Shown here piece after piece: positions 16,748-61,480 of a DNA stretch of 64,000 nt; the first letter of the stretch is position 1, and every line of letters begins with the position of its first letter. The stretch comes from Octopus vulgaris. Lineage: Eukaryota. A program made the position numbers and the translations under genes. The notes under the pieces are model-generated. The model saw only the letters and a program-made list of their open reading frames with translations. It was not told the DNA's origin and searched no databases. The stretch covers positions 1,178,001 to 1,242,000 of the forward strand of contig OX597819.1 in assembly GCA_951406725.2 (NCBI GenBank). Direction: 5' to 3'.

Positions 16748-17740
16748 TTAAAATATCTGGCCATTGGTCTGCACACATAAATGCTGAGATAAATGGTTTG
16801 AACAGGAAAATGTTTTGCCACAGTGCTGGCAACCGGCTTTCTCTTCCGCATGTACCCGAGAATGTTCCCGAAGTCCACGAGAACGAGTGAAACACTTGCC
16901 ACAGCATTCACATTTGTATGGTTTCTCAGCCGTGTGTATTCTAATATGTTCTTTGAGGCTGCTAGATCTGAGAAATGCCTTCTGGCAATGCTGACACTTG
17001 AAAAGTTTTTCGTCTGTATGAATGCGAGTATGTCGTGTTAAATCCCAAGAGTTCAAAAAGGCTTTATTGCAATGTATACATGCATAAGGTTTGATTCCAG
17101 CATGCATACGCAAGTGAGATGCGAGCCGACTCGGCCGTGTGAAAGATTTAACACAATAGACACACTTGAATGTTTTTACTGTTGTGTGAATTTTTAAATG
17201 TTCTTTTAAACTACTTAGTCGTGTAAAAGCTTTAGTACAAAAAGTACAGATATGTTTTTTTTCACCGGTGTGAATTTTTACATGCCGTGAAAGTTCCCAG
17301 GAATTAAAAAATGCTTTCACACAGTGATCACATTTAAAAGTTTTGATGCCAGAGTGTATTTTCAGATGTGCATTTAAATGGCTTGTGCGTGAGAAAGCTT
17401 TTGTGCAAAGTTCACAGGAATATGGCTTCTCTTTTGTGTGCACAGCCATATGTTCTGTAAGACTGGTTGACCGTAAAAAAGATTTTTCACAAAGTTCACA
17501 ACGAAATTTTCTCTCTCCTGTGTGTATTTTCATGTGTCGGGTAAGATCCCAAGAGTTGTAGAATGCTTTCTCACACAGAGTACATTTGTGAGATTTTTCT
17601 CCAGAGTGAGTTTTCACATGCCGTAGTAAATGCGCTGAACAAGAGTAAGACTTCTCACAGAAGTTGCACTTGAATGGCTTTTCTATTTGATGCATGTCTG
17701 AATTTTTCATATGATCAACCCTACCAATGTATTTATTCAT
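16748..17740 (-). CDS. C2H2 zinc-finger protein, 330 aa, single coding exon; 10 intact fingers plus 1 degenerate, no visible effector domain
   Basis: Uninterrupted CxxC-x12-HxxxH array with TGEK-like linkers; a strong polypyrimidine/CAG acceptor upstream (exon starting at 17935) implies spliced 5'UTR exons. Confidence 0.93.
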   Translation of the reverse strand: MNKYIGRVDHMKNSDMHQIEKPFKCNFCEKSYSCSAHLLRHVKTHSGEKSHKCTLCEKAFYNSWDLTRHMKIHTGERKFRCELCEKSFLRSTSLTEHMAVHTKEKPYSCELCTKAFSRTSHLNAHLKIHSGIKTFKCDHCVKAFFNSWELSRHVKIHTGEKKHICTFCTKAFTRLSSLKEHLKIHTTVKTFKCVYCVKSFTRPSRLASHLRMHAGIKPYACIHCNKAFLNSWDLTRHTRIHTDEKLFKCQHCQKAFLRSSSLKEHIRIHTAEKPYKCECCGKCFTRSRGLREHSRVHAEEKAGCQHCGKTFSCSNHLSQHLCVQTNGQIF

Positions 17741-19107
17741 AATAAATAAATTACGTAAACTTCTTTAATATTTCACTAATAGAAAATAATCATCAGGTTT
17801 CGTTTGAGCTTCACTACATAAGCCTTAAGATTTTCCAAATGTGAATAAAGATAAACAAGAATAATTCCCCTGATACGATGTTCAGTTGGTCATTTCCAAG
17901 TCAGATAAAGACAATAGAGCAATAAATTTTCAAATCTGAAAAACCAAAAATAGAAAAAGAAATTCAAGTCAGAAGTCAAATATAAATAACAACAGCAAAT
18001 AAGTTATATGTATCTTCAAAACCTTTCTTTATAAATAATGTATAGAAATAGTGTTACACTTGGAGATGGTCATATTATGCCAGTTAAACACACACACTAT
18101 ATATTTGGTCTTCATTTCAGTTTTATCATTATTATTATTATTTTAGTTTCTTTTGTCACACATCCTGTGGCCTCTTCAGTGGCTCTCTATCCCACGTGTC
18201 TGCCTCTTGTTCTGCTTATGCCAACACTACAATCTATTTCCTAAATGGAATAAGCAGAACAAGAGGAGGTACATGGGTCAGAGAGTCAGTGAAGAGGTCA
18301 CAGGATGTGTGACAAAAGAGCTTTGACAAAGAAACAAAAATAGCAACAATAAAGATGAAGCAAAGACTAAATATATAGCGCATGTTTTTAATTAATAAAA
18401 TACGAACATCCCCAAATATAATTATGTCTGTTTCAACACTTGATTTCAGATCAAGAATCTTGCAAAACAAATACATAAACATAAAAATGTAAATAAAGAT
18501 TTCTTGAAAAAAATTATTCTCGTTTCAGTTGTTGCTCCACTGGAGAGTTTGAAAATGAAATCACTAAAACCATTCAAACAGAATCATTTCTATGGAAGTA
18601 AGGCGTTAACGCTACCTTTCCCTGCAGAGCTCCATCCTATGACTGCCATATCTCATTCTTAACATGGCCTCATATCACCATTGATTCTCCTCTCCTATCT
18701 TTGTTTGCTGCTATCTCCATCCCTACATACCTCTGATCTCCATCTCTATCACTGTATGTCCCCCCACCCAACACTCCTTCTTTAGCTATCTACCCATTCC
18801 CCACACACATACACTCACATCATCTCCCTTTTTCTTATCTATCTACAGTTAGATACAGTTCTCAACCAGGGTCCATATGACCCCTGGAGGTCTGTGCAAG
18901 CAAAATAGTAAACTGGGCATCCACAGCAGCACTTCACAAGTCCATGAAAAACTTGCAAGAAACTAAATTCCTTTCACTAACACATAACAAAGTTCAACAT
19001 AATAGTATGTAAAACTAGCAGAGGAGCATCAACCACAAGGCTTACACTGAAGCACTAAAGTACTATCTTTTTGCAAATAAATATGACCTTGTATACTGAC
19101 CACACAG

Positions 19108-21377: not shown

Positions 21378-23947
21378 GAGAGCCACTGACCAGATCTGTG
21401 GCTGGTGCAAAGTGCCCCTCTCAACCCAAAATAACGTGGTGGTGGTGGAACAATGTTGTAGGGCTATTAGAGAAAAGAGACAGGCTTGGAAGGACTGGAA
21501 GAATGGTAGTAGCAGGGAATTGTATCAGACTGCCAGAAGGGAAGCTAGGAGACAGGTTTATTTAGCCAGAGGGGAAGCAGATAAGAAAAAAATTGCTAAT
21601 GTTCTGCGCCATGAGGACCAAAGACTTGAGGTGTTTCGTGTTGCAAGACAGTGTGTGAGAGAGAATCGTGACGTGGTAGGAGAGAAATGTGTTCGCATGG
21701 ATGATGGCTCACTTGCGCTGAATGAGGATGCAAAGAGAGAGGTTTGGAGACGCCACTATGAAAGGCTGCTGAATAAGGAAAATGAATGGGATAAAGAGAG
21801 TCTGCCGAATGTCGACCCAACAGAGGGACCAGCTATCCGAATTGACAGTTCCTTAGTAGTTAAAGCGATTAGATGCATGAAGACAGTGAAAGCCCCAGGC
21901 CCATCAGAAATTACTGCAGAGATGCTTAAAATATCTAGTCACCCATATAGTTAACCAGGTGATACACGAAGGAGTCATACCCAATGACTGGTGTAGCAGC
22001 ATACTAGTCAACTGCTACAAAGGTAAAGGTGACGCTTTAATTACAGAGGTATCAAGCTATTGGATCAGGTAATGAAGGTTACGGAGAGGGTCATAGCCTA
22101 ACTGATTAGGGAGAGAGTCAGCTTGGATGAGATGCAGTTTGGTTTCGTGCCAAGGAAAAGCACCATCGATGCCATATTTCTGGTGAGACAGCTGCAGGAG
22201 AAATACCTAGCCAAAGATAAGCCCCTGTACCTGGCTTTCGTTGACATGGAGAAAGCCTTCGACAGGGTCCCCTGATCCCTTATCTGGTGGTCAATTAGGA
22301 AACTAGGGATAGATGAATGGTTAGTGAGAGCTGTGCAAGCCATGTACAGGGACGCTGTAAGTAAGGTGAGGGTTGGCAACGAGTACACTAAAGAATTCAG
22401 GATAGAGGTAGGGGTCCACAAAGATTCAGTCCTCAGCACCCTCCTAATTATCATAGTCCTCCAGGCAATAACGGAGGAATTCAAGACAGGATGCCCCTGG
22501 GAGCTCCTATATGCTGATGACCTTGCTCTAATTGCTGAATCACTATCAGAACTAGAGGCGAAGTTTCAAGTGTGGAGACAAGGATTAGAATCGAAGGGCC
22601 TTAAAATCAACCTAGCTAAAACCAAAGTCCTAATATGTAGGAAGGCAGGCAAATCACAAACGCCTTCAGGTAGGTGGCCCTGCTTGATCTGTAGAAAAGG
22701 CGTAGGTAGAAACTCTATAAGATGCACCAAGTGTAAGCTATGGACACATAAGAGGTGCAGCAATGTCAAAGGAAGGCTAACTGGGAAGATAGTTTTTGTA
22801 TGTGGCAGATGCTCAGGAGCAATAAACATTGAAAATGCTCAGGGACCAACTTCTGCCACATTCCAGGGAGAAAAACTAGAAATAGTTGATAGCTTCCGTT
22901 ACCTAGGTGACCAAGTCAGTAGCGGGGGTAGGTGTGCTGAAAGTGTAACTGCTAGAGTAAGAATAGCCTGGGCAAAGTTCAGAGAGCTCTTACCTCTGCT
23001 GGTGACAAAAGGCCTCTCGCTCAGAGTAAAAGGCAGACTGTATGATGCATGTGTACGAACAGCCATGCTACATGGCAGTGAAACATGGGCTGTGACTGCT
23101 GAGAATATGCGTAAGCTCGCAAGAAATGAAGCCAGTTTGCTCCGATGGATGTGTAATGTCAGTGTACATACTCGACAGAGCGTTAGTACCTTGAGAGAAA
23201 AGCTGGACCTAAGAAGCATCAGTTGTGGTGTGCAAGAGAGACGTTTGCGCTAGTATGGTCATGTGAGGAGAATGGATGAAGATAGTTGTGTGAAAAAGTG
23301 CCACACCCTAGCAGTTGAGGGAACCTGTGGACGACGTAGATCCATGAAAACCTGGGACGAGGTGGTGAAGCACGACCTTCGAACTTTAGGTCTCACTGAG
23401 GAAATTACCAGAAACCGAGACCTTTGGAAATATGCTGTGCGTGGGAAGACCCGACAGGACAAGTGAGACCATAACCCATGGCCTCTACCTGGGACGTAGC
23501 CAGTCCACTTATGCATACCTTTCCTTCTTGTGACACAAACCCTACTTGTGAAGACCTGTTGAGGCAAGTGAAAATCAAAAATCAAAAATCAAAATCGAAA
23601 TCGATCAACATCAATGGAAATTGTAGCTAGGATACCAGTGCCGGTGGCACGTAAGAGAACCTCTGAACGTGGCCGTTGCCAGTGCTGCCCCGACTGGCCT
23701 CCGTGCTGGTGGCACATAAAAAGCACCATCCGATTGTGACCGTTTGCCAGCCTCGTCTGGCACCTGTGCATGTGGCATGTAAAAAGCACCCACTACACTC
23801 ATGGAGTGGTTGGCGTTAGGAAGGGCATCCAGCTGTAGAAACACTGCCAGATCAGACTGGGCCTGGCGCAGCCTTCTGACTTCCCAGACCTCAGTTGAAC
23901 CGTCCAGCCCATGCTAACATGGAAAACGGACGTTAAACGATGATGAT
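21378..23947 (+). mobile_element. 5'-truncated RTE-clade LINE (RT + PHD finger + 3'UTR, (GAT)n tail), frameshifted
   Basis: KAPGPS, QFGFVP, AFVDMEKAFD, LLYADDLAL, FRYLG, HGSETW motifs; stops and frameshifts; (TA)n on both sides. Confidence 0.93.
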
Positions 23948-38429: not shown

Positions 38430-39678
38430 TCATGTCATCCCATAAGTTCTATCTGATTTTCCCTTTTTTTAAATTGAATGAAATTTAAATGTATTTTACA
38501 ATGTCAAATGGAATTTAAAAAATTATTTTTATGCATTTGTGTACATTTAAACTAATTAAATATTATTTTACAGAATAATAGAATTAAAATTTCTTTGATT
38601 AAAACCCTTTCTAACATGGAAGTATCCAAAGAGCTATGTGTATAAAAAAGGAAACTCTGCAGCCAAAGTGACTCAGAACATACACTCAGTTTATGGGAAA
38701 GAATGCTTGAATGGAAGAACTTGCAGAAGATGGTTTGCAAAATTCAGAAGTGGAGATTTCAGCCTTGAAGATGAAGATCAAACAGGATGTTCAGTTGAGT
38801 TTGATGATAAGCTCCTTGAGACATTACTTGACGAAAATCCTACTTTATCAGTTGAAGAATTAGTAATAAAGCTTAGTTCAAACCATACATTTTCATTGTC
38901 ATCTTCAACAACTTAAAAAATGGGTGCCTAATGAATTATCCAAAAGCAACTGCAAATCCCGAGTTGACATCTACTCTTCTCTCCATTCTTGTGAACTCAT
39001 TTCACCCTTTTTGGATAGACTTGTGACTGGTAACGAAAAATGGATCTTCTATCGAAATGTTAAATGTCGTAAACAGTGGCTTGGCAAAAGGAAAAAAGCT
39101 CAACCACAACTGAGAAGAGAACTTCATGAGGAAAAGGTTCTTCTCTCTATCTGGTGGGATTGCAGAGGAATAATTCACTTTGAATTGTTACCACCTAATG
39201 CAACAATCAATGTTCAAGTCTACTGTCAGCAATTAGAGCGTTTGAACCAAGCTTTGAAGAAAAAAAGACCCATTTTAGTGAATAAAAAGGAGTGATGTTT
39301 CATCAGGACAATGCGCGGCCCCACACTGCAAAGATCGCATCACAGAAAATCGAAGAATTTGGTTGGGAAAAAATTCTTCATCCACCTTATTGTCCCGACC
39401 TTGCTCCTTCAGACTACCATTTGTTTCGTAGTTTACAGAATCATTTGGGGGACATAACTTTCGCAAGCCTGTGGGAGGTTGAAACTGACATTTCAGAGTT
39501 CTTCGCTTTGAAACCAAAAGAGTTTTACATTGATGGGATTAAAAAGCTTGTAAATAGATGGAAGGAAGTCATAGATAATCAAGGAAAGTACATTGATGAT
39601 TAGATTTCAATTAAATATAATATTTGATCACTTGTTTTCTTCATCCAAAATTCAGACAGAACTTATGGGATGACCTGA
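38430..39678 (+). mobile_element. Near full-length mariner (about 1.25 kb) with TIRs; transposase pseudogene
   Basis: TIRs tcatgtcatcccataagttctatctg / cagacagaacttatgggatgacctga; HTH, WVP, VTGNEKW (catalytic D to N), QDNARPH, PDLAPSDYHLF spread over frameshifted ORFs. Confidence 0.93.
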
Positions 39679-43665: not shown

Positions 43666-43805
43666 ATGGCTGGGCATTATTGGATTGTTTTCCTACCGAT
43701 ACTTTCGGTTTTCGTCGATGCTTTTAACATTGACAAAGAAAAATGTATGAATGAATCTTGTGGAGCGTATAAACCATACAGTCCATTAATTCTTTGTTCC
43801 TATCT
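43666..43805 (+). CDS. TM2D2: TM2 domain-containing protein 2, coding exon 1 (signal peptide)
   Basis: Not in the ORF track. MAGHYWIVFLPILSVFVDAFNIDKEKCMNESCGAYKPYSPLILCSY(L), GTGAGT donor; P.SP.ILCSYL is the conserved TM2D2 motif. Confidence 0.9.
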
Positions 43806-45950
43806 GTGAGTATAAACACTTCCTTGAAGGAAAATGTGCATTTTTTTCCCTCTTAATTTCGTTTTCATTTAAATCTTTTATTTAATCAGTTTCTGTACTC
43901 CAGTAATTCCGTTCCGGTTTAATAAAACATAATAAATATTAAGATTTCGAAATGTATAATGCTCGGTTAAGGGTCACCACAAGCTTCTGTGGTTTCTTGT
44001 ATTTCTGTAAATCGGTCGCGACCCCAACTCACCGAAGCCGAGGGAAATTATATTCAATAATGATTAGACAATTAAAAAGAAAACTGTATATATTCGGATG
44101 TGTGGTAATATAAACAATGCTGGCTGGTGACGATTCGTTTTTAAAGATCATTGTGAAGAATTCAGGCGAAAGCAAAACATTAAAACCGACCTCAAATGAA
44201 ACAAACAATCCATTATCCTACATTTCATCTACAAAACAACTTGGTTAATCTGAACGAATCGAATAACTGTTTACCAATTGGTTATGGTTATTTCGCGGGT
44301 CTCATACTCTTTAATAAAAAAAAAAAAATCATCGAAAAAATAAATTCGTTCATAAAACACATCTACAGGGAAATGACAACTTAAACATGACCACCAGGTC
44401 GAAAGCTGAAATTGAAAACTGTCGACCAAGAGTGGACTTGGAATACCTATTTCTTTATTACCCACAAGGGGCTTGATCATTTCCTATGAAGGTTGTCGCA
44501 CCTACCATAAGTCAGCTAGTGTTGATTGTTTTAGCCATATTCACAAATGCTTTTTGATACCTTTTTTGGCGACACTTTTCCTTTTATGGAGATACATTAG
44601 GTTGTGATTTTGAACAAGGAAAATCTAAGAGCTATGGTTCAAAACCCAGCAGGGACCTCGCTACAATAGTCCTCTTGCAGTGATTTTGTTATGCCACAAA
44701 CGAAATGAAAATAGGCAATAAAAATTTTTTTTAGCAATTAAAACGAGCAATTACATTACAGAAAGCTTAAGTGCATAAAAGTTGACAATATCCACAAAAT
44801 TCCACAAAGTAGTCCAATATACTTAGAGAATGTTGGACCACAAAAATTAGAATTTTACATACTAGTAATGTCTTTCTTTAGGAACAATATCTTTGTGTGC
44901 TGAGAATGTCTCTATGTATAGATGAATTTGATGTTGTGTGTGGAAATATTGTTGGCTGTATTTGCATTAGTGGAAGCTTTTTAAATTCAGTCAATAGGGT
45001 GAGACAAACTGAAGAGCAGGAAAAAGCTGAGTGTCTGTGTTAAGCAGGCACAAAAGGTCATTGATGAATAGTAGAAATATGTCACCAAATATGCTTTGTG
45101 GAAGCAGGCATAGAAACAAGATGGAATTCTAAAGTACTAACACAGATTTCCATGGTTGTAATAGTTCTTCACCCAAATCTTTCTCTATAGGAGTATTAGG
45201 ATAAGGCATCGTCGTTGTCGTCATCATTTCTATGCTGGCATGGGTTGAACTGAGGACTGGCAAGCCAGAAGGCTGCACCAGGCTCTGATCTGATCTGGCA
45301 AAGTTTCTACAGCAGGATGCCCTTCCTAACGCCAACCACTCCGAGAGTGTAGTGGGTGCTTTTTACGGTCCATCAGCATGAGGGCCAGTCTCATGGTACT
45401 GGCAATCACCATGCTCAAATGGTGTTTTTAACGAGCCACCGGCATGGAAGCCAGTCAGGCAGACCTGGCAAAGACCACGCTCAAATGGGGATTTTTATGT
45501 GCCACAGGCATGGGTACCAGTCAGGTGGAGCAATAATTTGAACCCTTAATATAATGAATGTACACAGTAGACTATCCTACAAAATCACGGCACCTAATTT
45601 CCTTTGCAGAATGGTTATCTTATGAAGAACATAAGTTAATGTCTAATGTGATACTAGTCAGTTTCAAATGCTTCAAGGACAAAAAAACAAAAAACCCTAA
45701 AGATTGCTAGGAATGCTGAGTAAATTGTAAAATCCCACCAATTTATTTGTCAGAAGAATCCCCCAATGGAGAAAGGGGATGCATCTGATATCAGTAAGTT
45801 AAGAAAGTAGCCTTGAATAATTTTAACATGCTAAAAATAGCAGCCAATGTATCCCCATACCCAGTTTTTTATAAGGTAAAGCCCTAAATTATTAATTGAC
45901 ACATTATTAATTATCTTATAACAGCAATGCCTGGAAAAATCATGGATTAA

Positions 45951-46460
45951 ATGGAAAAATGTGAGCATGAAAAGTAATATTCTTAAGATTATAAACCTAG
46001 AAAAGTACAGGACAAGTTCTTACACCTGTAAAAGTATAGGACAAACTATTACTTCAAGTAAAGTAAAGAATAAGAAACATTTTGCTTAAAACATTGCAGC
46101 TAAAATTAAAATTTGAATATTAAAACTTATTTTATTATAGTTTACAAATAACACTATACTTATTTAAGCAGAATTTGGCTAATTTACTGCCTTAAATACA
46201 GAAATAAGTGACTAATTAGACAAACTTACAAATTAGCTGAACAGTTTGTACAATAAATTTAAAAGCTGAGAACTGTAAAGTGTGATAAATTAGAAGAACT
46301 GGCATTCTTTGTTGCAATATTTTAAGTAAAAAGTTTCTTATTCTTTACTTTACAAGAAGTCATAGTTTGTCCTATACTTTTACAGGTGTAATAACTTGTC
46401 CTGGACTTTTCCAGGTTTATAATCTTAAGAATATTACTTTCCATGCTCACATTGTTCCAT
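45951..46460. mobile_element. Foldback/MITE-like element with long imperfect inverted arms (about 150 bp)
   Basis: atggaaaaatgtgagcatgaaaagtaatattcttaagattataaacct...ttgca (45951-46099) is the inverse of 46312-46460. Confidence 0.85.
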
Positions 46461-47105
46461 GTAATAATTAATGTGCATTACTTGACACTACAAGGTTGGC
46501 GTCATTTATTGAGTAAAATGTAAGAAAAGAAAAGTGAAAGTAGAAGAGAGCCAACTTGTTAAGACAAGTGGTGTTGATTCCTCTACACCTCTGAGTGGCT
46601 CTCAGGCTTGAGGTTGACTTTGTCAGTTTTTATAGTCGCAAACTGCCTTTCTAGAATTTTTAGCAAAACTGTTTAGTGGGAAAACTCATAGACTTTATAT
46701 GAGGGTTGCTGCATCTACCACAATATGTCAGCCAGTGCTGATTGGTCAAGTCATATTCACCCACGTTTTAATCTCTATGGTGACATTTTGCCTTTTTATA
46801 ATAATGCATTTGGCTGTGGTTCTGAACTGGGAAAATTTAAGAGCTAATGGTTTAAAACTCAGCAGAGTTCTTGCTGTACACTTATGCAACCTGCTGGGTG
46901 CAGTGGTCTACATTAACCTTGTAGCCTGAGTAATAAAAGCACCATTAATTTGTATAGGCATACATATCTACAGTCATATATATATATATTATAAATATAT
47001 AATGCAATATTAGCATCAAGCCGTGTAGAGAAAATATTTCTCTTATTCTTTTATTCTTAAAGGTGTGAAAACATCTTGTTTGTTCAGTGTCGCCATCTAT
47101 CAGGA

Positions 47106-47152
47106 ATCCCAAACATTGATGTTTTGAGCTTCTTGGCTCTTGTCAATGGGAT
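47106..47152 (-). ncRNA. Hammerhead ribozyme copy, likely inactive (G12A)
   Basis: Minus strand AUCCCA-UUGACAA-GAGC-CAAGAA-GCUC-AAAAC-AUCAAU-GUU-UGGGAU. Confidence 0.5.
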
Positions 47153-47210
47153 GTACCTAAGACGGGCAACTCTGAACAAACTTATAAAGCAATAGCTTTA
47201 TATAAGGTAC

Positions 47211-47257
47211 ATCCTATTGACAAGAGCCAAGAAGCTTGAAACATCGATGTCTGGGAT
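47211..47257 (+). ncRNA. Minimal type I hammerhead ribozyme (U3-A8 variant), predicted cut after C47251
   Basis: AUCCUA-UUGACAA-GAGC-CAAGAA-GCUU-GAAAC-AUCGAU-GUC-UGGGAU: stems I, II and III all pair, with GAAA and the GUC triplet intact. Confidence 0.7.
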
Positions 47258-47534
47258 TCCTGATGGATGGCGTCACTGAACAATCAGGGTATTTACATGC
47301 CTTTTTCCTGTAAGAGAAATATTTTCTCTATGGTAACTGCAGTGAATTTGCCTTTTAGCAGTTGAAATATGTCACAAATGTATTTTAACTAACCTAAATT
47401 TTGCTTATACCTAAACACTGCTTGGTGCTGACATTTCATTATTTTCTACAATCAGGCAATTTACCAGTCAACGTTGATTGTATTTTACATAAAGCTATTT
47501 CTTTATAAGTTTATAAGTTGCCTCCCTTAGGTAC

Positions 47535-47581
47535 ATCCCACTGACAAGAGCCAAGAAGCTCGAAACATTGATGTCTGAAAT
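47535..47581 (+). ncRNA. Hammerhead ribozyme copy, degenerate (C3-A8 mismatch, weakened stem I)
   Basis: AUCCCA-CUGACAA-GAGC-CAAGAA-GCUC-GAAAC-AUUGAU-GUC-UGAAAU. Confidence 0.55.
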
Positions 47582-47715
47582 TCCTGATGGATGGCAACAC
47601 TGAACAAAGTGTTTTCACACCTTTTTACGATAAGAGAAATATTTTCTCTACAGTAACTACAGTGAATTTGCCTTTTAACAGTTGAAATATGTCACAAACA
47701 TATTTTAACTTATGT

Positions 47716-48750
47716 CATCATCATTATCATCTTTTAGTGTCCATTGTCCATACTGACATGGGTTGGATGGCTTCATCAGGGCTGGCAAGCTGGAAGGCTG
47801 CACCAGACCCCAGTCTGACTTGGTTTGGTTTCCTTGACGGGATACCCTTTCTAACACCAACCACTCTGAGAGTTTAATGGGTACTGTTGTCACCGCCACA
47901 GGTGCCATTTATGTGACACCAGTATCTGTCAGGACTGCGATTTTACTTGACTTGATGGGTCTTCTCAAGCAAGACATAATGCCAAAGGTCTTGGTCATTG
48001 CCTCCATGAGGCCCAACACTTGAAAGGAGCTTTTCACATGCCACTAGCATCGGTCACTTGAGGCTCATCGCTTGAAAGCTGCTTTTAACATGTCACTGGC
48101 ATGGGTGCCCATTGCATGATACCAGCATCAGCCATGACTATGATTTCACTTGGCTTGAAGGGTCTTCTCTAGCACATCATATTGCCAAAGGTGTTGGTCA
48201 CTAGTCATTGCTTTTGTGAGGCCCAAAGTTCAAAGATCATGCTCACCATCTCAACCCATGTCTTCCTGAGTCTACCTTTACCACAGTTAGAGATCAGCAC
48301 TTTACACAGCTGTCCTCATCAATATGCATCACATGACTATACCAGCACAGTTGTCTCTTTTTCACACCACATCTGATGCCTCTTATGCCCAACTTTTCTT
48401 TCAAGATGCTCACACTCTGTCAAATATGCACACTGACATTGCACATCCAGTGAAGCATACTGGCTTCATTTCTTTCAAGCCTACGCATGTCCTCGGCTGT
48501 CACAGCTCATGTTTCATCGCCCTGTAGCATAACTGTTTGCACACAGGCATCATGCAATCTGCTTTCCACTCTGAGGGAGAGGCCCTTTGTTGCCAGCAGA
48601 GGTAGGAGCTCTCTAAACTTTGCCTACTCTTATTCTCACAGCTGTGCTCTTGGAGCATCCACTTCCTCTACTAATTTGGTTACCTAGATAACGGAAATTA
48701 TCTACTACCTCTAGCTTATCCCACTGGCAGTTGATGGAGTCTATTTTCCT
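47716..48750 (-). mobile_element. Old RTE LINE 3' portion
   Basis: (CAT)-type tail, 3'UTR and degenerate C-terminal ORF sequence matching the inverse of 22850-23450. Confidence 0.8.
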
Positions 48751-50179
48751 AAATATATATGTCATCATCTTCATCCTTTAACGTCCATTTTCCATGCTGG
48801 CATAGGTTGGCAGTTTGACCAGAGCTGGCAAGTAGGTGAACTGCACCAGGTTCCAGTATGATTTGGTTTGGCTCCTGCGGCTGGATGCCCTTCATAACAC
48901 CAACCAATTTACAGTGTATGCTGGGTACTTTTAATGCACACGAAGAAGGAAGATATGGAAACAAACCTTTCAGTTGGGAATAGATTTTTAGAGAAATTCT
49001 AATTGACTCATATTAGTGTAGGGAGAAATATTTGGGGACCTGTAGCGTAGGTGACAACTGAGAACTTCTATGACAGAACCTGCTTAGGGCTACAGATCAG
49101 ACATGTTCCTGGAGCAGAGTCCCTACTAAGCTGAAAATGACATGATAGTGGAATGATACAGTTAATAGAGCAGTAATGGCTAAAAGACAGGCCTGGAAAA
49201 GGTGAAAGGGAGGTGGTTGTAGGGAGTATTGCCAAAAGGCTAGAAGGGCAGCTATGCAACTGATATACTTGACTAAATGTGAGGCAGAAATGAAGAGGTT
49301 TGCATGTTCCTTGCTGCCTAAGGACCAAATGCCTGAAGTGACAAAAGTGTAAGATAATGTATGAGAGAGAACTGAAGTATCATTGGTGAGAAGTGATTCG
49401 GGATGATTAAGGCATACTTGCTATTGGTATGGAAGACAAGAAAGTTGTGTGAAAGTGCTATGATGAAACAGTTTTAGGTAGCACTGTGTATATATATCAT
49501 AATCCTCCTCCTCCTCCTCCTTATCATCATCATTATTTAATGTCCATTTTCCATGCTGGCAAGGTTGGATGGTTTGACAGGAGCTGACCATCTGAAGGGC
49601 TGCTCAGGCTCCCGCTCTATGTTGGCGTGGTTTCTATAGATGAATGTCCTTCCTAACACTAACCACTCTACAGAGTGTACAGGGTGCATTTATGCTGCAC
49701 CAGCAAGTGGTTTTTACATGGCATCTGCACTTATGAGCCCATGAGATTAGGGATGTTCAGCAGCAGAGGGTTGCAGGGGATACAAGGACAACCACACTTT
49801 TATTTAGCTTGGCCCTTTGCCCGATTTCCTTCCTTTTCAAGACACTCCCACCACCCACACCTTTCCAAACTGCAGCTTTTCCTTGATACACATTTATTTT
49901 CAATCTATTTTTTTTTCGCTGTAGCTTATGATAACAGTCTCAGGTTTCTCTATTTTTTCTCAGCTGACACACTTGCTTTCTTGTCATTCAAAATATGTAA
50001 TTTTATTTGAGTTTGTTCTTACAAGTAGCGAGTGTAAAAATAAAAAACATTCATAATTATCTCTTTTTTTTTTTTTTAATATTACATTGTTGTTTATCAT
50101 AATTTAGCCTAGCATGGATTTCTAATTGTTTTAATTGTTATAATTGTCATTTCAAAATATATATTTCATTTGCTTGTAG

Positions 50180-50267
50180 ACCAATGGAATTTCTGAATTG
50201 TAGTCCACCTCAAGATCTTGAAGAAAATGAAACTGCTCGTGAAATGTTGGGTTATGGTTGTACGAAA
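50180..50267 (+). CDS. TM2D2: TM2D2 coding exon 2
   Basis: ttgtag/GTAAGA; (L)PMEFLNCSPPQDLEENETAREMLGYGCTK; phase-compatible with exon 1. Confidence 0.92.
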
Positions 50268-51069
50268 GTAAGAAGCTGATCACTTCCCTTGATATTCTTT
50301 TTAATAAAATTTACTAAATTTGATGTAGAAAAAATAATACAATTTAACATTTTCCCTTCTGTACCTTAATGAATTTTCATTGTTACCTGATTGCATGCAC
50401 AGTCTTATATAAGTGATTCTTGTCATCCACTCTTCTTTAATGTTTGCATCTGAACATGTTTCACATGTAACATAAACTTTTATGTGGTATGTGAACAAAA
50501 CCTCAATAACATCCTTGTCTCATTCAACGGCATTAAGACATATACACTACATGTACCAGGAAAACAACCAGAACATGTTGCTTTTCATTAAGAGCACTCA
50601 TTGACCTTTAGTAACATCATGAATTAAAAAAAATATCAAAATCACACTTTAGTCTTTAACTGGAACTGATGAATGAATTGAGAAGAATATTATGAAATAT
50701 TTTGTGAAGTAATTGATTTTATAGGAAATGCACAAAATATTGGAGAGGAGAATAAAGCTTAAAATTAGGACCTAATTGTATTTCAGATGAGTGGTAAGAA
50801 GTTTTCTTCCCAACCATATGGTTCTGGGTTCAGTCCCACTGTGTGGCACCTTGAGCAAGTGTTTTCTACTTGAGCAAGTGGCTCCTGGCCAATCAAAGCC
50901 TCTCAACATATGGCCACCATGCTTCCTCACTACTCCTGCTTATGATCAGAGATGCACATAGTCAGTCACTGAGGGACAGCAAATAAGTGTTATTGAGCAG
51001 AATATTTGCTGTAGCCCATCTTTTTACACCAAGACAAAACATGTATATGATAACACTTTCCATCAGTTA

Positions 51070-51871
51070 ACATCAGGATTTTCTGCACAATGAACTTGAC
51101 ATGATGAGAATTTCTGCTCGGTGGGTTCCATATCTTCTGACATCTGATTAAAAGCACACCAAGCTGACCACATCACAAGAAAATATCACATTGTTTGTTT
51201 GAGGCAGATCCAGTTAGTTTCCTTGAATGGTGTCCATCATTTTGAGCCAGAGACAAAGAGGCAACCCATACAGTGGAAACACCACTCCTCACCTGTTCCA
51301 GAGAAGACCAAGGTCGTTTCATCTGCAGAGAAAGTGATAGCCTCAGTTTTTTGGAATGCAAAATACATTGTCTTCATTGACTATCTTCAAAAAGGCCACA
51401 CCACCAATGGAGAGTATTATGCCAACTTGTTGAGGTAGTTAGAAAAGGTTATCAAGACCAAGCGCTCAGGAAAACAGACAAAAGTGGTCTTGTTTCATCA
51501 GGACAATGCTCCAGTATACAAGTCCTTAGTTTCGGTGGCTGTTGTGCATGACTGTGGCTTTGAACTAGTTGATTACTCTCCTTGTTCTCTTGATTCCTGA
51601 TTTGGCCCCGTCTGACTGTCATTTGTTTCCCAACATGAAAAAATACTTGACTGGGAACCAGCATTGCAATGATGATGATGTCATATCTGCTGTTGATAGC
51701 TTTTTTGACCAAGGTGAAAGCTTCTTCACCAATCAGATTCAAGCACTGCAACACTGATGGAAGAAATGTGTGGACTGCAAGGTGGGGACTATTTTGCAAA
51801 CTAAACCTTATTTGGTCACATTCCATGAGAGTGTCTTTGTCAGCCAATGACCTTTTTAGCTGACCCTTGTA
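51070..51871 (+). mobile_element. Decayed mariner fragment (catalytic half plus right end)
   Basis: ARWVP, FEPETKRQ..QW, ASVFWN, QDNAP, PDLAPSDCHLFPNMKK. Confidence 0.85.
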
Positions 51872-51945
51872 TGATTAGAATATATTATTTTCCCATCTAT
51901 TAATGCAGGAGTTTAAAAGCATTTTTATTTTTGATTTATATTTAG

Positions 51946-52061
51946 TGGGGCGGACGTCGTTATGAAGATGTTCAAAAGACTCATGTATGGTGTACTGCCT
52001 TAGAAGGTATTGAGTGTTTTGGTAACAGAAAATTCCTGAAGGGTGGCTTCCCATGTATCAA
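51946..52061 (+). CDS. TM2D2: TM2D2 coding exon 3
   Basis: tttag/GTAAGT; [38 protein letters not shown](K). Confidence 0.93.
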
Positions 52062-52249
52062 GTAAGTGATTATTGTTTTTTTTTATTATGAAAATATACT
52101 AATGTCTTTTGTTTGGTAAGTTATCTGATCTGAGTTAGTTTGTTGAAATCAAAACCATTGCATAAGAGTAGTTACATTCAGGACATGAACAGCATCAATA
52201 AAATGCAGTGTTTTAAAGCATTGCAATTGTAACATGTTTTAATAGAATA

Positions 52250-53000
52250 TCATCATCATCATCATCATCATTGTTTAACGTCCGTTCTCCATGCTAGCAT
52301 GGGTTGGACGGTTCGACCGGGGATCTGGGAAGCCAAAAGACTGCACCAGGCTCCAGTCTTATCTGGCAATGTTTCTACAGCTGGATGCCCTTCCTAACGC
52401 CAACCACTCCGTGAGTGTAGTGGGTGCTTTTTACGTGCCACCCGCACAGGTGCCAGGCGAGGCTGGTGCCTCAACAGGTCTTTGTGTCCAAGGGAGGAAA
52501 GGCATGCATAAGTGGGCTGGGCTCACTTGTCCTGCCTGGTTTTCTCACGTACAGCATATTTCCAAAGGTCTCGGTCGCTGGTCATTTCCTCAGTGAGGCC
52601 TAAAGTTCGAAGGTCGTGCTTCACCAGCTCGTCCCAGGTTTTCCTGGGTCTACCTCTTCCACGGGTTCCCTCAACTGCTAGGGATTGGCACTTTTTCACA
52701 CACCTATCTTCATCCATTCTCGCCACATGACCATACCAGCGCAATCGTCTTTCTTGCACACCACAACTGATGCTTCTTAGGTACAACATTTCTCTCAAGG
52801 TACTAACGCTCTGTCGAGTATGTACACTGACATTACACATCCAGTAGAGCATACTGGCTTCATTCCTTGCGAGCTTACGTATGTCCTCAGCAGTCACGGC
52901 CCATGTTTCACTGCCATGTAGCATGGCTGTTCATACACATGCATCATACAGTCTGCCTTTTACTCTGAGCGAGAGGCCTTTAGTCACCAGCAGGTAAGAG
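52250..53000 (-). mobile_element. RTE LINE 3' fragment (young family)
   Basis: ORF 52523-52924 nearly identical to the C-terminus of the 21378-23947 copy; (CAT)n tail. Confidence 0.92.
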
Positions 53001-53644
53001 AAAATAGATTAGCTATCTATTTAGAAGAATGTAAGCATTTTCTATTTTGAAGTTCAGCATTTTTTCTTTGAATCATATGGTCTGTTTTATGTTGCATTGA
53101 CATAGAATAAGTACATAGAATATAGGAACTTGTAATTTGCATAAAGTATTGCCATATAAGGAGAATTGTATAAGAAAGTAATGAAAGTCTCTTAACTGTA
53201 AAATGTGGAGAAAAACAACTCTATTTTCAGCATGACTGTGTATTAAGAAGTTTGCTTCCCAACTACATGGTTTTAGGTTCAGTCCCACTGTCTGGCACCT
53301 TGGACAAGTGTCTTTTACTATGGACTTGGGCCAATCACAGTTTAGAATGATGAATGTGCCTCAGCATGTAGTGATAAAAATGTATGTCTAGAAATGAAAG
53401 TTTTTGGCTTCTTGTGCTGGTGAGCACCACCTTGAAGGATTTTTTTAGTCAAACAAATTGACCCCAGGACTTACTTTTTGAGCCTAGTACTAATTCTATT
53501 GGTCTTTTTTGCTGAACTGCCAAGTTACAGGGATTTAAACACTCCAACACCAGTTGTGAAGCAGTGAGTGGGGTGGGTGTGTGACAGCAAACACAGACAC
53601 AAAAACACACACACAAACATATATACATACATGTATATATATAT

Positions 53645-53941
53645 AGGTGCAGGCTTAGCAGTGTGGTAGGAAGCTTGCTTCACCATCACATGTTTCCGGG
53701 TTCAGTCCCACTGTGTGGCACCTTCGGCAAGTGTCTTCTGCTATAGCCTTGGACTGACCAAAGCCTGAGTGGATTTGGTAGATGGAAACTGAAAGAAACC
53801 TGTCATACATATATATATATATATATTGTCCCATTTTGTATTTATATATATATATATATATATAAATACAAAATGGGACAAGAACGCAAAACATTCAAAT
53901 AGACGATACAAAAAACGGACGGGTCATTCGAAGCCTCTAAT

Positions 53942-53978
<37 letters not shown>

Positions 53979-54152
53979 GTTTGTGTGTCTATGTTTGCCC
54001 TGACCCCACCACCATCACTTGATAACTGATCTTGGTGTGTTTATCTCCCTGTAAAGTACTAGGCTTACAAAGAATAAGTTCTGGGGTCGATTTGTTCAAC
54101 TAAAGGCAGTGCTCCAGCATGGCTGCAGTTAAATGATTGAAACAAGTAAAAA
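53645..54152 (+). mobile_element. SINE family 1 with an insertion in its (TA)n spacer
   Basis: Head 53645-53805, tail 53975-54152; unrelated palindromic fragment in between. Confidence 0.8.
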
Positions 54153-54418
54153 CTATATATAATGGGATTCTTTCAGTTTCTATTTACCAAATTTTCTCAC
54201 AAGGCTTTAGTTGGCCTGAGACTATAGTAAAAGACACTTGCCCAAGGTGCCTTGCAGTAGAACTGAACCCAGGATAATGTGGTTGGGAAAGAAGCTTCTT
54301 TGTCTTTTAAGAAGAAATTTGTTTTAAATGAAATATTGAAGTTCAAAAAATGCTTGCAAGTTTTGAAAAGCAATTTTTGCTTGAAAGTTTCTTCACAGTT
54401 TTCCCTTCTTCTTTACAG

Positions 54419-54507
54419 GTACAATGGTCATTACTTCCTTACAACTTTAATTTATTCCGTATTGTTGGGTTTTCTTGGAATGGATCGATTTTGTTTAGGA
54501 CATACAG
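54419..54507 (+). CDS. TM2D2: TM2D2 coding exon 4 (first TM2 helix, DRF motif); final exon not found in window
   Basis: ttacag/GTTTGT; (K)[29 protein letters not shown](G). Confidence 0.93.
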
Positions 54508-54684
54508 GTTTGTGAAAGGATTTCTTTTTAATAATTTAAAAAATTTTATCGAATTTCTTTTACATTTATTAGACAATTCTATTTCTTTATCATCATCATC
54601 ATATGTCCACTTACCAGTTGGTTTGACCAGAACTGATAAGCTAGAGGGCTGCACCAGGTTCCAGTCTGATTTGGCATGGTTTCT

Positions 54685-55699: not shown

Positions 55700-56840
55700 T
55701 GTGTGCAGGGTGCAGATTTGTATGTTTTATGTATGTCTTCTCATGCATATAGTTGCATATCTAGACCTGCTCATATATACTTAAATGATAAACTTCTGGA
55801 AAGTTTTACAGATTTTACAGTTTCAGTGAATGATTGGATCTGTAGTCTTCGAATTAGCTTTCTCCTCTCTGGATTTGAGAAGCCTAATTTCTCAAGATTG
55901 TTACATATCCCAGAGCCCCAATAATTACAGGTATAAACCTGAACTTGTAATCTGGATAGAGTAACTTCAGATTTCTTAATAGTTCAGCATAGGCGTTCTC
56001 TTTTTCACTGATCTTCAGCTCTGTGTAAATAGCCGCTGGGCAGCTAATTTCCACAACTGTGCACAGTCTCTCTTCCTTGCCCCAAATCATTATATCAGGT
56101 CTGTTGTGCTTACATTTTATTGAGATCTTCAACGGTACATTCCACCAGTATTCCTTTTTATTATGGGTGGCTATGTCTTCTACCATATTGTGTGTTCTTA
56201 TTTCTTTGTCCTTGGGATTATCCTTCTGACTGATTTCATTATAAAGTGTCCTAGCTACAATGTCATGTCTCATCGGTAGATAATACCGTGATGACATTTC
56301 TGGACAGCTGCTTATGATGTGGGTGATATCTTCAGTGTGAACTCCACAATGTGTGCATCGGTTGTCACATTTTACTGCATCTCTATCCCTTTTGTGCATT
56401 AGGTATTTGGTTGATATTTCCTGTTCCTGGATTGCAAGCGCATGCCCTTCATGATAGACTGCTTTGATGTTCGATGTTACTATCATCATGGAGCTTTCTA
56501 CTAACATATCCATGCATAGTCTTCTGCTCATATAGGCTCATCCATTTATCTGATGATATGTTGTGGTAACATACCTGTAACATTCCTTGTCAGATCCAGG
56601 GGAAACAGTCAAATCATTGGTGGAGATGTTACTAGTTTGGTTTATAGTTTCCCCCTTTTCACAACCATATAACAACATTTATCTTAACCAAACTCCAACC
56701 TACATCCTTTGAAAATGTTGTAATTAGGTCAAGGCTCTTTTTCATCTCATGCATATTCTTTGCATAAAGTTTTAAGTCATCCACAAAGAAACAGCGTGTA
56801 ATTTTGGTATTTCTGTTTCCTTGTGAACCAGTGAGATAGT
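55550..56840 (-). mobile_element. RLE-type non-LTR retrotransposon fragment (R4/Dong/NeSL-like)
   Basis: ORF 55884-56531: CxxC...HIISSC zinc knuckle, RHD, RPDI, VEISCP restriction-like endonuclease motifs; FVDDLK RT motif near 56780; boundaries approximate. Confidence 0.85.
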
Positions 56841-57902: not shown

Positions 57903-60900
57903 TCATCATCATCATCGTTTAACGTCCGTTCTCCATGCTAGCATGGGTTGGATGGTTTGACTGGGGTTTGGGAAGCCAGGAGGCTGCACCATGCTCTAGT
58001 CTGATCTGGCAGTGTTTCTGTAGCTGGATGCCCTTCCTAATGCCAACCACTTCGTGAGTGTAGTGGGTGCTTTTTACATGCCACCAGCACAGGGGCCAGA
58101 AGAGGCTGGCAATGGCCATGATCAGTTGGTGCTTTTTATGTGCCACTGGCACGGGGATCATGACTACATTTGATTTTCGTTTTGATGTTGATGTACTTGA
58201 CTGAATAGGTCTTCTCAAGCACAGCATGTTGCCCTGCGATCCAAAGTACTTTTTGAATGGGCTGGGGCTGGTTATGTGAAACTGGTGTAGGATACAGCTG
58301 TGAGCTCACTTTATTTACTGGGTCTTCTCAGTCACAGCATATCTCCAGAGGTCTTGGTCTTTTGTCATTGCCTCTGTGAGGCCCAACATTCGATGGTCAT
58401 GCTTCACCACCTCATTCCATGTCTTCCTGGGTCTATCTCTACCCCAGATTCCTTCAACTGTTTCGGAGTGGCACTTCTTCATACACCTCTCCTCAACCAT
58501 CTGTAGTACATGATCGTACCAGCACAAACATCTGTCTTGCATGCCACATCCAATGCTCCTTATATCTGACATTTCTCTCAGAGTGCTTACACTCTGTCGT
58601 GTGTGCACACTGACATTACACATTCGGTGGATCATGCTAGCTTCATTTCTATTGAGCTTATGCATGTCCTCAGCAGCCATGGCCCATGTTTCACTGCCAT
58701 GAAGCATGGCAGTTCACACACATGCATCATTTAATCTACCTTTCACTCTGAGAGAGAGGCCCTTTGTCACCAGTAGGGGTAGAAGCTTTCTAAACTTTGC
58801 CCAAGCTATTCTTAGTCTAGTGGTAACACTCTCTGAGCATCCACTCCCACTACTAACTTGGTCACCTAGGTAGCGGAAGCTATCAACTACTTCTAGTTTC
58901 TTCCCCTGGAATGTGATGGAATCTGTTTTCGGAGCATCTGTGGTGTTTATTGCCCCTGTGCATCTGCCGCGCATGGAAGCTATCTTCCCAGTTAATCTTC
59001 CTTTGATGTTGCTGCACCTCTTATGTGTCCATAGTATACACTGGATACATCTTATGGAGTTTCTACCTACACCTTTTGTACAGATTGAGCAGGGCCACCT
59101 ATCTGAAGGGGTGTATGATGTGTTCACCTTCCTACTTACTAGAACTTTGGTTTTTGCAACATTAACTCTAAGGCCTTTTGATTCTAAACCTTGCTTCCAC
59201 ACCTGAAATTTCTTCTCTAGTTCTGGTAGTGATTCAGCTATGAGGGCCAGGTCATCAACATAGAGGAGCTCCCAGGGGCAACCTGTCTTGAATTCCTCTG
59301 TTATTGCCTGGAGGACTATGATGAATAAAAGGGGATTGAGGGCTGATCCTTGGTGGACCCCTACTTCTACCTGGAATTCTTCACTATACTCATTGCCAAT
59401 CCTAACCTTACTAATGGCCTCTCTGTATAGGGCCTGTACAGCCCTTATTAGCCATTCGTCAATCTCCAGTTTCCACATTGTCCACCAGATAAGGGACTGA
59501 GGGATCCTGTCAAAGGCTTTCTCCAAGTCCACAAAAGCTAAGTATAGGGGTTTATCTTTGGCTAGGTATTTCTCCTGTAATTGCTGCACCAGGAATATAG
59601 CATCAGTGGTGCCTCTACCTGGCACAAAACCAAACTGCATCTCATCTAAGCAGACTCTCTCCCTAATGAGATGAACTATGACCCTCTCCATGACCTTCAT
59701 CACCTGATCCAGCAGTTTGATACCCATGTAGTTATTTCTATCTAAAGCATTACCTTTACCCTTGTAGCAGTTGACTATGGTGCTGCTACGCCAGTCATTG
59801 GGTATGACTCCATCATGAACTACTTGGTTTACAATGCTGGTGACTAGGCCATAGCCCACACCACCAGATATTTTAAGCATCTCAGCAGTGATTCCTGATG
59901 GGCCGGGGGCTTTTCCTGGCTTCATATCCTTAATTGCTGTCTATTCAGATAGCTGGTCCCTCTACTGGGTCAACATTTGGCAGGTTCTCCTCCTCCCATT
60001 CATTCTCCACGTTCAGCAGTTTCATAATGGCTTCACCAAGCCTCTTTCTTTTCCGAAACATTAAAAGCAAGTGCACCATCATCCATGTGGACACATTTCT
60101 CTCCTGTGACATCACAATTTTCTCTCACACACTGTCTTTCAATCTGAAATATTTCAGTTCTTTGGTCCTCACGTCGCTGGACATTGGCAAACTTCTTCTT
60201 TTCTCCTTCACCATTGGCTATGTATACCTGCCGCCCAGCCTCCCTTTTGGCTACCTGGTACAGTTCTCTGCTACCCCCACCCTTCCAGGCTTTCCAGGCA
60301 TGTTTCTTTGCTCTAATGGCTTTGTCTACTGTACTATTCCTCCACCACATTACTCTAGGTCTGGAAGGGACTTTGCACCACCCACAGGCTTGGTCTGTGG
60401 CACTCAGCAAGCTGTCCCGTAGGAATTTCCAGCTACCTTCTATGTCCGATGTCTGTAGCTCCTCTCTCTCATCAGATTTCTTGATGAGGATGTCCCTAAA
60501 TCTCTGACCATGTGAGGGGTTCTTTAGCTTCCAAATCCTTCTTTTCTGGATTGGTCTACTTCTTGGCATCCTTCTGGCCTCAAGCCTAAAGTCACTAATG
60601 ACTAGCTTATGTTGGGGGATACATTTTTCACCTGGGAGGGTCTTTGTATTTAAGAGCAACCCTGCATTGCGCTGTCTGGTGAGGATGAAATCAATCTGGC
60701 TTGCAGAGTCACCTGATTGATAGGTTATCAGGTGGCTGTCTGGCTTCCTGAAGTTAGTGTTGCAGATTAAAAGGTTGCATGCATCACAGAACTCCAGTAG
60801 CCTAGATCCTTCATTGTTTCGGGAACCAATACCATGGCCCCCGTGTACACCAGTGAAGATACCGGATTGCCGCCCAACATGCCCATTAAAATCTCCAGCT

Positions 60901-61480
60901 GCAAAGATGAGGTCATTGCCACTCGTCTTTGAGGTAGCCTGTAGAAGGGTATCATAAAAATGGTCCTTCCATTCATTTGGTAGGCCCACTTGTGGGGTGT
61001 AGGCAGAGATAATTGTAGCTGTGCTGTTCTGCAGGACTAGCCTGAGCTTAAGCACTCTATCACATACCCTCTATGACTTTATCTACCTATTTCTCCACAA
61101 ACAGTATGCCTATACCCCCTACTCCATCCATGTTACCTTGCCAGAAGATTTTATACCTATGTGCCTTGCCTGTGAGGACCCTAGCTGAAGCTCCTCTCCA
61201 CCTTAACTCTTGTATGCAGCATACATCAACATGTCTCTTTTCAAGCATCTCTACAGTCTCACTAGACCTGCCTTTCAGTGTGCCTACATTGACAGTGCCA
61301 ATTCTGAAAACTGGGAAAGGAATGTTGGGTGAGGCTTGGGGAGGAGGGATGTTATTCAGTGCCTGAAAAGAAGAGGGAGGAGGTTGTTGTGTTCGTTTTT
61401 TAGGCATGCTTCATCTGTTCTCACTTCCAACCTCACATCATTCAAACATTCAAGCATGTTAAGATTAAGATTGTTTCCCC
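57903..61480 (-). mobile_element. Near full-length RTE-clade LINE (APE endonuclease + RT + PHD), inactivated
   Basis: RIGTVNVGTL, CIQE, GDFNGHVG, QIDFIL, PQHKLV (APE); KAPGPS, QFGF, DLEKAFD, YVDD (RT); split by frameshifts and stops; (CAT)n tail; 5' boundary approximate. Confidence 0.93.

Follow-up and report, generated by a model that had tools for sequence, protein, structure and literature searches.

The closest described counterparts of the repeat reported here are the non-LTR retrozymes of metazoans. As described (PMC7229834; bioRxiv 10.64898/2026.07.22.740005), these resemble the octopus family in being tandem and protein-free, with a 170-400-nt monomer (the mussel repeats are 350-390 bp), a GC content below 45%, a canonical type I hammerhead, a strongly self-paired circle and co-existing Penelope-like elements (PLEs). 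On its testable sequence features, the family classes as a metazoan non-LTR retrozyme. It differs from retrozymes as described in these two sources in that it consists of short, dispersed, two-armed insertions with PLE tails; a U3-A8 core pair throughout the family, together with a U4C subgroup, is a feature of its own. Retrozymes are described as expressed in the form of linear and circular monomers. The published link between retrozymes and PLEs rests on co-occurrence and on likeness to pLTRs (PMC7229834; bioRxiv 10.64898/2026.07.22.740005). In the published account, 24 of 57 Xenopus retrozyme families match known elements, nearly all of them PLEs, whereas no pLTR relative was found for the octopus family among the PLE loci sampled.

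PLEs of the EN+ clades (PMC11167929; 10.1101/2021.04.23.441226) share a different set of features with the family. These are an inverted, 5'-truncated arm and a 30-40-bp tail at one end only, a combination given as the PLE signature (10.1101/2021.04.23.441226), as well as a hammerhead upstream of the 3' end, AT-rich targets and two internal start sites for the reverse transcriptase (RT). The tail has been traced to these two start sites and to AT-rich nicking (PMC11167929). Unlike the PLEs of these accounts, the octopus family has no RT or GIY-YIG open reading frame, and its ribozyme is canonical, not minimal.

The U3-A8 pair is a known natural swap in the hammerhead core (PMC4209133; PMC3088659) and is stated to be active in vitro (PMC3088659). 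The Cercyon PLE of Schistosoma, with about 1,300 matches, has the same compensatory pair (PMC4209133). Compared with the variants in these sources, the octopus U3-A8 pair sits in the canonical ribozyme of a retrozyme. The U4C change lowers activity in vitro, yet supports viroid infectivity (PMC3088659). Within the open-access literature, taken without supplements (which may list cephalopod matches), we found no paper on octopus or cephalopod retrozymes; one paper contained the term 'U3-A8', and none contained both C3U and G8A.

The cassette in intron 1 of a TM2D2-type gene

The window is the whole 64,000-nt stretch of Octopus vulgaris DNA that was analysed, and all coordinates below refer to it. 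It contains a TM2D2-type gene, identified by a Pfam TM2 domain in the exon-4 piece. This piece is 97% identical to an Octopus vulgaris protein. Named homologues are mostly 'TM2 domain-containing protein 2', CG11103 or amaretto, and none carries a D1 or D3 name. Contigs from runs X1 and X3 (two of the four runs examined) join 43805 to 50180, 50267 to 51946 and 52061 to 54419 at GT..AG boundaries, and intron 1 is removed normally by splicing in both. The gene has the following parts:

43806-50179, plus strand: intron 1 of the TM2D2-type gene, from the GT..AG joint in runs X1 and X3 and the homologue names
43805 (end of exon 1), then 50180-50267, 51946-52061 and 54419-54508, plus strand: exons, from spliced contigs

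The cassette lies in intron 1, with its direct copies on the TM2D2 sense strand. This placement had been proposed in a preliminary description of the sequence and is upheld by the joints, the TM2 domain and the homologue names. The cassette and its flanks comprise:

46976-46999, no strand: (TA)n microsatellite of the left flank, likely the insertion target (from the sequence and the flanks of other family members)
46999-47030, minus strand: left-arm tail (3' end site 2), continuous with the arm body except for an internal deletion; 84-86% identical to the tail of locus L011 (E 3e-8)
47024-47211, minus strand: left (inverted) arm, recognised by inverted repeats and 80% identity to 47479-47652
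47106-47152, minus strand: hammerhead copy 1, U3-A8 with G12A, predicted to be inactive, antisense to the gene
47205-47710, plus strand: right arm, about 1.5 tandem monomers, 5'-truncated and without tail, stopping just before end site 1
47211-47257, plus strand: hammerhead copy 2, with an intact U3-A8 core, 13/13 pairs of stems I-III (two of them G-U) and a predicted cut after 47251
47399-47442, plus strand: internal copy of both end sites and the intervening tail, read through in the tandem arm (family 3' ends pile up at the equivalent places; alignment to L011)
47535-47581, plus strand: hammerhead copy 3, with a C3·A8 mismatch and 4/6 pairs in stem I, predicted to be inactive; GUC at 47573-47575; weak match to Rfam HH9
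47711-48700, minus strand: 3' part of a LINE, unrelated to the repeat family and adjoining the right arm; 71-78% identical to other LINE pieces in the window, with a tblastn match at 48536-48161

The layout of one inverted and two direct copies, the latter 324 nt apart, had been noticed before and is reproduced by our comparisons. The inverted arms (47059-47158 and 47205-47304) match at 86%, and the direct copies (47205-47283 and 47529-47607) at 90% with a spacing of 324. The three local copies are equidistant (86, 90 and 89% pairwise), which indicates that they arose together and not through later duplication. Position C17 of the hammerhead falls at 47251 in copy 2 and at 47575 in copy 3, the two cut sites predicted earlier, and the 3-bp stem III with a palindromic UCGA loop is present in the middle copy as claimed. 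The left boundary, previously placed at 47026, lies instead at about 46999, as the 32-nt tail (46999-47030) abuts the TA tract.

Several other features were identified in the same intron and window. Intron 1 also contains a pair of 158-nt inverted repeats (45946-46103 and 46308-46465; 91% complementary, 204 nt apart) that is likely a MITE. The inverted arm and copy 2 (47050-47310) would form a near-perfect hairpin of about 100 bp in the pre-mRNA, a possible substrate for A-to-I editing. A tandem C2H2 zinc-finger frame of 338 aa is present at 16748-17764 on the minus strand, and an RVT_1 domain was confirmed at 58717-59940. The stretches 22276-23253, 38599-39603, 55884-56537 and 58315-61070 we take to be decayed LINE frames, a mariner-type transposase and the end of an RLE-type LINE; the LINE piece at 47711-48700 is presumably of RTE type.

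A dispersed family with a predicted U3-A8 hammerhead

The locus is one insertion of a dispersed, non-coding family with a unit of about 332 nt. A search of the 2.8-Gb genome with 47180-47400 returned 2,375 first-look candidates, about 40-48 of which scored as family matches, and reversed-pattern controls returned none. A 25-letter pattern at the family 3' end has 148 exact matches in the genome, and its reversed control has none. Across 90 distinct loci the shared unit comes in circular permutations and in arrays one to three units long, and the loci share no body beyond it. The tandem period is 332 in one locus (L002) and 324 at the TM2D2 locus; loci with two ribozymes in tandem include L088, L110 and L028. 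Copies are dispersed over most chromosomes and encode no RT or GIY-YIG frame. The monomer has a GC content of 0.35-0.39, and when folded as circles, all nine natural monomers were more stable than their shuffles (60 for each; z -2.3 to -8.7). These dispersed, protein-free units and their conserved core bear out the suggestion of a non-autonomous, hammerhead-bearing retroelement family.

The family is old and likely extinct. Measured on 169 pieces over 279 of 332 columns, divergence from the column majority is 7.7%; among 88 copies, the ribozyme region is on average 80%, and at most 96%, identical between pairs. No young burst is seen in the sampled copies, so the family has likely ceased to move. 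Subfamily letters agree within a locus (0.83 over 20 pairs, against 0.53 over 4,521 pairs), a positive result in the test for a shared template. Scars of RNA editing were sought as an excess of A>G on the sense strand, which was absent (272 against 264 T>C, p 0.67; 279 of 332 columns). Contigs from four runs guessed to be RNA contain low-depth matches to family pieces, most of which continue into unlike sequence.

Stem I of the motif has 6 bp and continues beyond a UAC/U internal loop for about 24-30 further pairs, stem II has 4 bp and a hexaloop, and stem III has 3 bp and a UCGA loop that makes a 10-nt palindrome. Following the classification laid out in PMC4209133, we assign the predicted structure to the canonical type I hammerheads, not to the minimal ones. 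Minimal hammerheads are described there as having a helix II of 7-8 bp, a helix I of 4-5 bp, an extra base before stem II and little or no helix III. A minimal PLE hammerhead was rejected on account of the 6-bp helix I with its extension, the 4-bp helix II lacking the extra base and the 3-bp helix III. The earlier statement that each copy folds as a minimal type I hammerhead was not confirmed: the 6-bp stem I, the 4-bp stem II and the long stem-I extension argue against 'minimal', and copy 2 alone has an intact core with 13/13 pairs. GAAA was also ascribed to each copy, but copy 1 has AAAA (G12A), while copy 3 has the C3·A8 mismatch and the broken stem I. The core as given in that description has A, not G, at position 8, a point on which it is silent.

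Position 3 is U and position 8 is A family-wide. The pair is found in 86 of 97 aligned copies, a set made from 98 extracted copies by dropping one exact duplicate, with some copies picked by core patterns. Leaving positions 3 and 8 free in a pattern search (U4 fixed, matches counted from the list) gave 42 U3-A8, four C3-A8, five U3-G8 and no C3-G8 among 51 matches. Where copies were chosen on the 3' end and the ribozyme was ignored, U3-A8 occurs in 41/46 and C3-G8 in none. The U4C subgroup comprises 14 of the 97 aligned copies and 16 of 43 in a second count; no core column of the 97-copy set has a variant at 15% or more. The family majority fits the type I core in full (U4 G5 A6 N7, A9, G12 A13 A14, A15.1-U16.1, H17 and a Watson-Crick 3-8 pair), and at the TM2D2 locus only copy 2 does so.

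The stems covary. On a named 37-pair structure, 90.1% of cells are paired in 57 copies (mostly those of the 98 that cover the extension, plus the three local copies), and slid controls pair at 33-40%. Two-sided changes number 71, against 29.6 after shuffling (none of 500 shuffles as high), although the compensatory cells represent a few subfamily events and not 71 independent ones. C-G/U-A swaps occur in stem II, stem I and the extension, and a C-G to G-C swap in stem I, found in 5/83 copies, is compensated in all five. No two-sided change was found in stem III. With these 57 copies as input, RNAalifold returned six other pairs (-0.85 kcal/mol) and not the hammerhead. A family consensus without a conserved core or covarying stems had been named beforehand as one part of the grounds for giving up the proposal; core conservation and stem covariation are what we found.

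The intronic HH9 hammerhead of amniotes is a conserved single-copy motif. Its Rfam model (Hammerhead_HH9, RF02275) is also of type I, and the UAC in loop 1 and CAA-type hexaloop 2 of the octopus motif align to it; the model differs from the family in having C3-G8 in place of U3-A8. The Rfam search suggested earlier found nothing at gathering score within the window and gave only a weak match of copy 3 to HH9 (24.8 bits against a cut-off of 52, E 0.0024). Matches to MIR841 and WsnRNA46 were rejected, as they merely reflect the long inverted hairpin. The predicted folds of single copies are not more stable than those of shuffled sequences (z -0.18, 0.14 and -1.22). This result and the lack of a match at gathering score would suit a local satellite, or a palindrome arisen by chance, that looks like a hammerhead by accident. 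However, that explanation is refuted: the family is spread over most chromosomes, its ends are defined and its stems covary. The tandem copies also resemble the inverted copy about as closely as they resemble each other. We regard its probability as negligible.

The insertion footprint and the source of the template

The family insertions carry a Penelope footprint, consisting of TA targets, head-to-head arms, two 3' end sites and a one-sided tail. Among 128 arm ends in 89 loci, 50 lie at unit positions 340-359 and 34 at 370-399. An independent set was drawn from the 148 pattern matches (the first 30 plus 60 of the next 70, with eight already in the first set skipped and two others left out; two of the 90 repeat earlier loci). 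In this set the copy end lies at most 47 nt from the anchor in 80 of 90 cases, and these ends fall into two clusters separated by 34-43 nt. The flank of 49 of these 80 opens with a TA run, counted as TATATA or ATATAT among its first 24 bases. Two head-to-head arms are present at 37/89 loci of the first set and 42/90 of the independent set. Where the anchor is present on both arms, a crude script classification of the pooled sets places the tail on exactly one arm in 42/53 loci, on both in three and on neither in eight, where 26, 11 and 16 are expected (p 1.3e-5). The TM2D2 locus shows the same arrangement, with the left-arm tail at 46999-47030 set against the TA tract and an untailed right arm adjoining the LINE fragment. 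The Penelope-type layout recognised in the preliminary description is supported by the two-armed loci, one-sided tails, two end sites and TA targets.

We consider it likely that the cassette is an old two-armed insertion of a protein-free U3-A8 hammerhead repeat whose RNA was likely circularised and likely copied into a TA microsatellite by a PLE enzyme. This account builds on direct observations (the existence of the family, its monomer and core letters, covarying stems, ends at two sites, one-sided tails, read-through of the cut site and the decay of this copy) and adds a proposed course of events. The family RNA would fold as a U3-A8 type I hammerhead and be cut and closed into a circle. 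A Penelope-like endonuclease would nick both strands within the TA tract, and RT would have two starting points within the RNA: site 2, used on one strand, would give rise to the left arm with its tail, and site 1, used on the opposite strand, to the right arm. The enzyme would run through the sealed cut site for about 1.5 turns, and the two cDNAs would be joined head to head at about 47205-47211. Neutral decay of the copies would have followed, leaving copy 2 as the only one that could cut, with no second working site to release a monomer.

Evidence about the template comes from the cut site. None of 90 arms stops within 8 nt of it, and 32 read through. There is also no pile-up of 5' ends there among these 90 arms, although the gap may be an alignment artefact of the self-complementary stem. 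Read-through implies a template that is either a religated circle or an uncut multimer, and it fits both equally well. The same family and enzyme could therefore have used an uncut linear multimer transcribed from tandem master loci, with a minor role for the ribozyme and no circle. Hammerhead cleavage is described as dispensable for insertion by an anole PLE in vitro (PMC11167929), and U4C is tolerated in a large subgroup of the octopus family, both of which suit a multimer. Against it, the core and stems have been kept, with compensation, through several subfamily turnovers, and the loci are short arrays of one to three units, with no long master array among the 89 examined. We judge this alternative unlikely and prefer the circle.

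The enzyme was sought in the genome itself, where we identified 6,136 GIY-YIG candidates and at least two PLE families with intact RT plus GIY-YIG elements. The absence of an adjacent RT frame, as first reported, holds: tblastn with nine GIY-YIG-locus proteins (eight PLE-type) gave no match in the window. The monomer has no nucleotide match to 30 GIY-YIG loci or seven longer PLE loci, no pLTR among these resembles it, and none of the sampled PLE families is homologous to it. A likeness of the tail to the PLE with a 781-aa frame was not significant (p 0.73-0.96). Fragments of a second PLE are fused in the same direction to the family 3' end in 5/89 loci, by eye (L024, L032, L074, L088, L101). 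These fusions serve as no more than a lead to a partner: none was found among 88 further loci, and later insertion at the TA boundary explains them equally well.

The tails, inverted arms and TA targets are PLE features, and PLEs of the same genome carry hammerheads, one of them U3-A8. The copies could thus descend from the pLTRs of an autonomous PLE by 5' truncation, in which case the family would be no retrozyme in its own right. However, the sequence upstream of the ribozyme runs into the 3' end of the previous unit or stops, and no relative was found among the GIY-YIG and PLE loci above. When the nine proteins were searched against 90 loci by tblastn, three matched (L024, L087, L088), and in the two inspected the frame piece lies downstream of the family 3' end and comes from another PLE. 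Two candidate parents were rejected, as no recognisable PLE frame is enclosed between two ribozymes 5.5 kb apart on C2 or between a younger-family ribozyme pair 3.9 kb apart. Identity with an autonomous PLE was likewise dismissed, with no RT plus GIY-YIG frame found between pLTRs. An origin as pLTR remains is accordingly quite improbable, and we continue to treat the family as a retrozyme.

The genome also contains other hammerhead-bearing elements. A young PLE family (L143-L146, on C16, C17 and C9) has a 781-aa RT plus GIY-YIG frame, an upstream open reading frame and direct pLTRs, with a U3-A8 hammerhead-like motif in the pLTR and two 3' end sites about 36 nt apart. A very abundant, intact PLE family (L208-L213), to which the five old fused fragments above belong, has frames of 1,100-1,200 aa in a pLTR-ORF-pLTR order, a linker zinc finger as in Neptune/Nematis, and a hammerhead-like motif in the pLTR with C3-G8 and U replacing A6. 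A second, much younger repeat family of about 360 nt (L131:26-57; L150-L179) has 366 genome matches at up to one mismatch. It is unrelated to the 332-nt family outside the ribozyme. Its hammerhead is canonical with a U3-A8 pair, its arms occur both in tandem and inverted between TA flanks, and it lacks any longer body. U3-A8 is thus present in at least three unrelated families of one genome: the family of about 332 nt, one PLE pLTR and the younger 360-nt family.

State of the locus and meaning for the family

Copy 2 is the only ribozyme of the cassette that could still cut. Its core is intact, it has 13/13 pairs and it lies on the sense strand, and these features would suit an active intronic ribozyme that cuts the TM2D2 pre-mRNA at 47251 and so affects splicing or decay. 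However, 16/97 copies (some picked by core patterns) have an equally intact core and all pairs, so selection is not needed to explain its state. Like any decayed copy, copy 2 has accumulated changes of its own, and the 5' half of the extended stem is missing from it. Two runs contain spliced TM2D2 contigs. The antisense arm is transcribed first, and in predicted folds, which take no account of tertiary contacts, forcing the hammerhead to form beside this arm costs 48.7 kcal/mol, against 5.7 for copy 2 alone. The predicted trapping of copy 2 in the hairpin of about 100 bp argues from kinetics alone: when the full cassette is folded, the antisense arm is predicted to pair with copy 3 (0.91) and not copy 2. 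Synthesis of copy 3 would in this way release copy 2, and the cost drops back to 6.8 kcal/mol. Cleavage of the pre-mRNA at 47251 is unlikely, although some may occur, and a ribozyme acting on TM2D2 is, on all of this evidence, very doubtful.

Release of a 324-nt RNA, also suggested earlier, was not supported. A dimer of copies 2 and 3 has one site that combines the copy 2 core with the broken stem I of copy 3 (4/6 pairs), and its other site is the mismatched copy 3 core; release is therefore unlikely. In one published usage an 'active' element has a complete ribozyme in two consecutive units (bioRxiv 10.64898/2026.07.22.740005), whereas at the TM2D2 locus the second of the two, copy 3, has C3·A8 and a broken stem I. 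The suspicion that the locus is a fossil was correct: only the middle ribozyme is intact, and copies of the family have decayed by about 8%. Most likely the two-arm insertion is now inert, and this fossil is probably without bearing on TM2D2.

In summary, what is new here is an old retrozyme family with a clear PLE footprint; the core variant itself is known but uncommon. It is conceivable, as a tentative extension, that the ribozyme retroelements of octopus moved as a group to non-standard cores, which were kept functional by tertiary contacts or help from PLE proteins and so escape searches for C3-G8; the one-sided tails may then be the trace of a PLE enzyme that acted in trans and primed on both strands from one RNA circle. 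For the hammerhead core, the family amounts to a set of mutants made by nature, with U3-A8 either alone or combined with U4C, that has persisted through the replacement of several subfamilies, its stems changing in compensation. In its two start sites and the tail on one arm, it shows the PLE enzyme's own footprint on a protein-free retrozyme.
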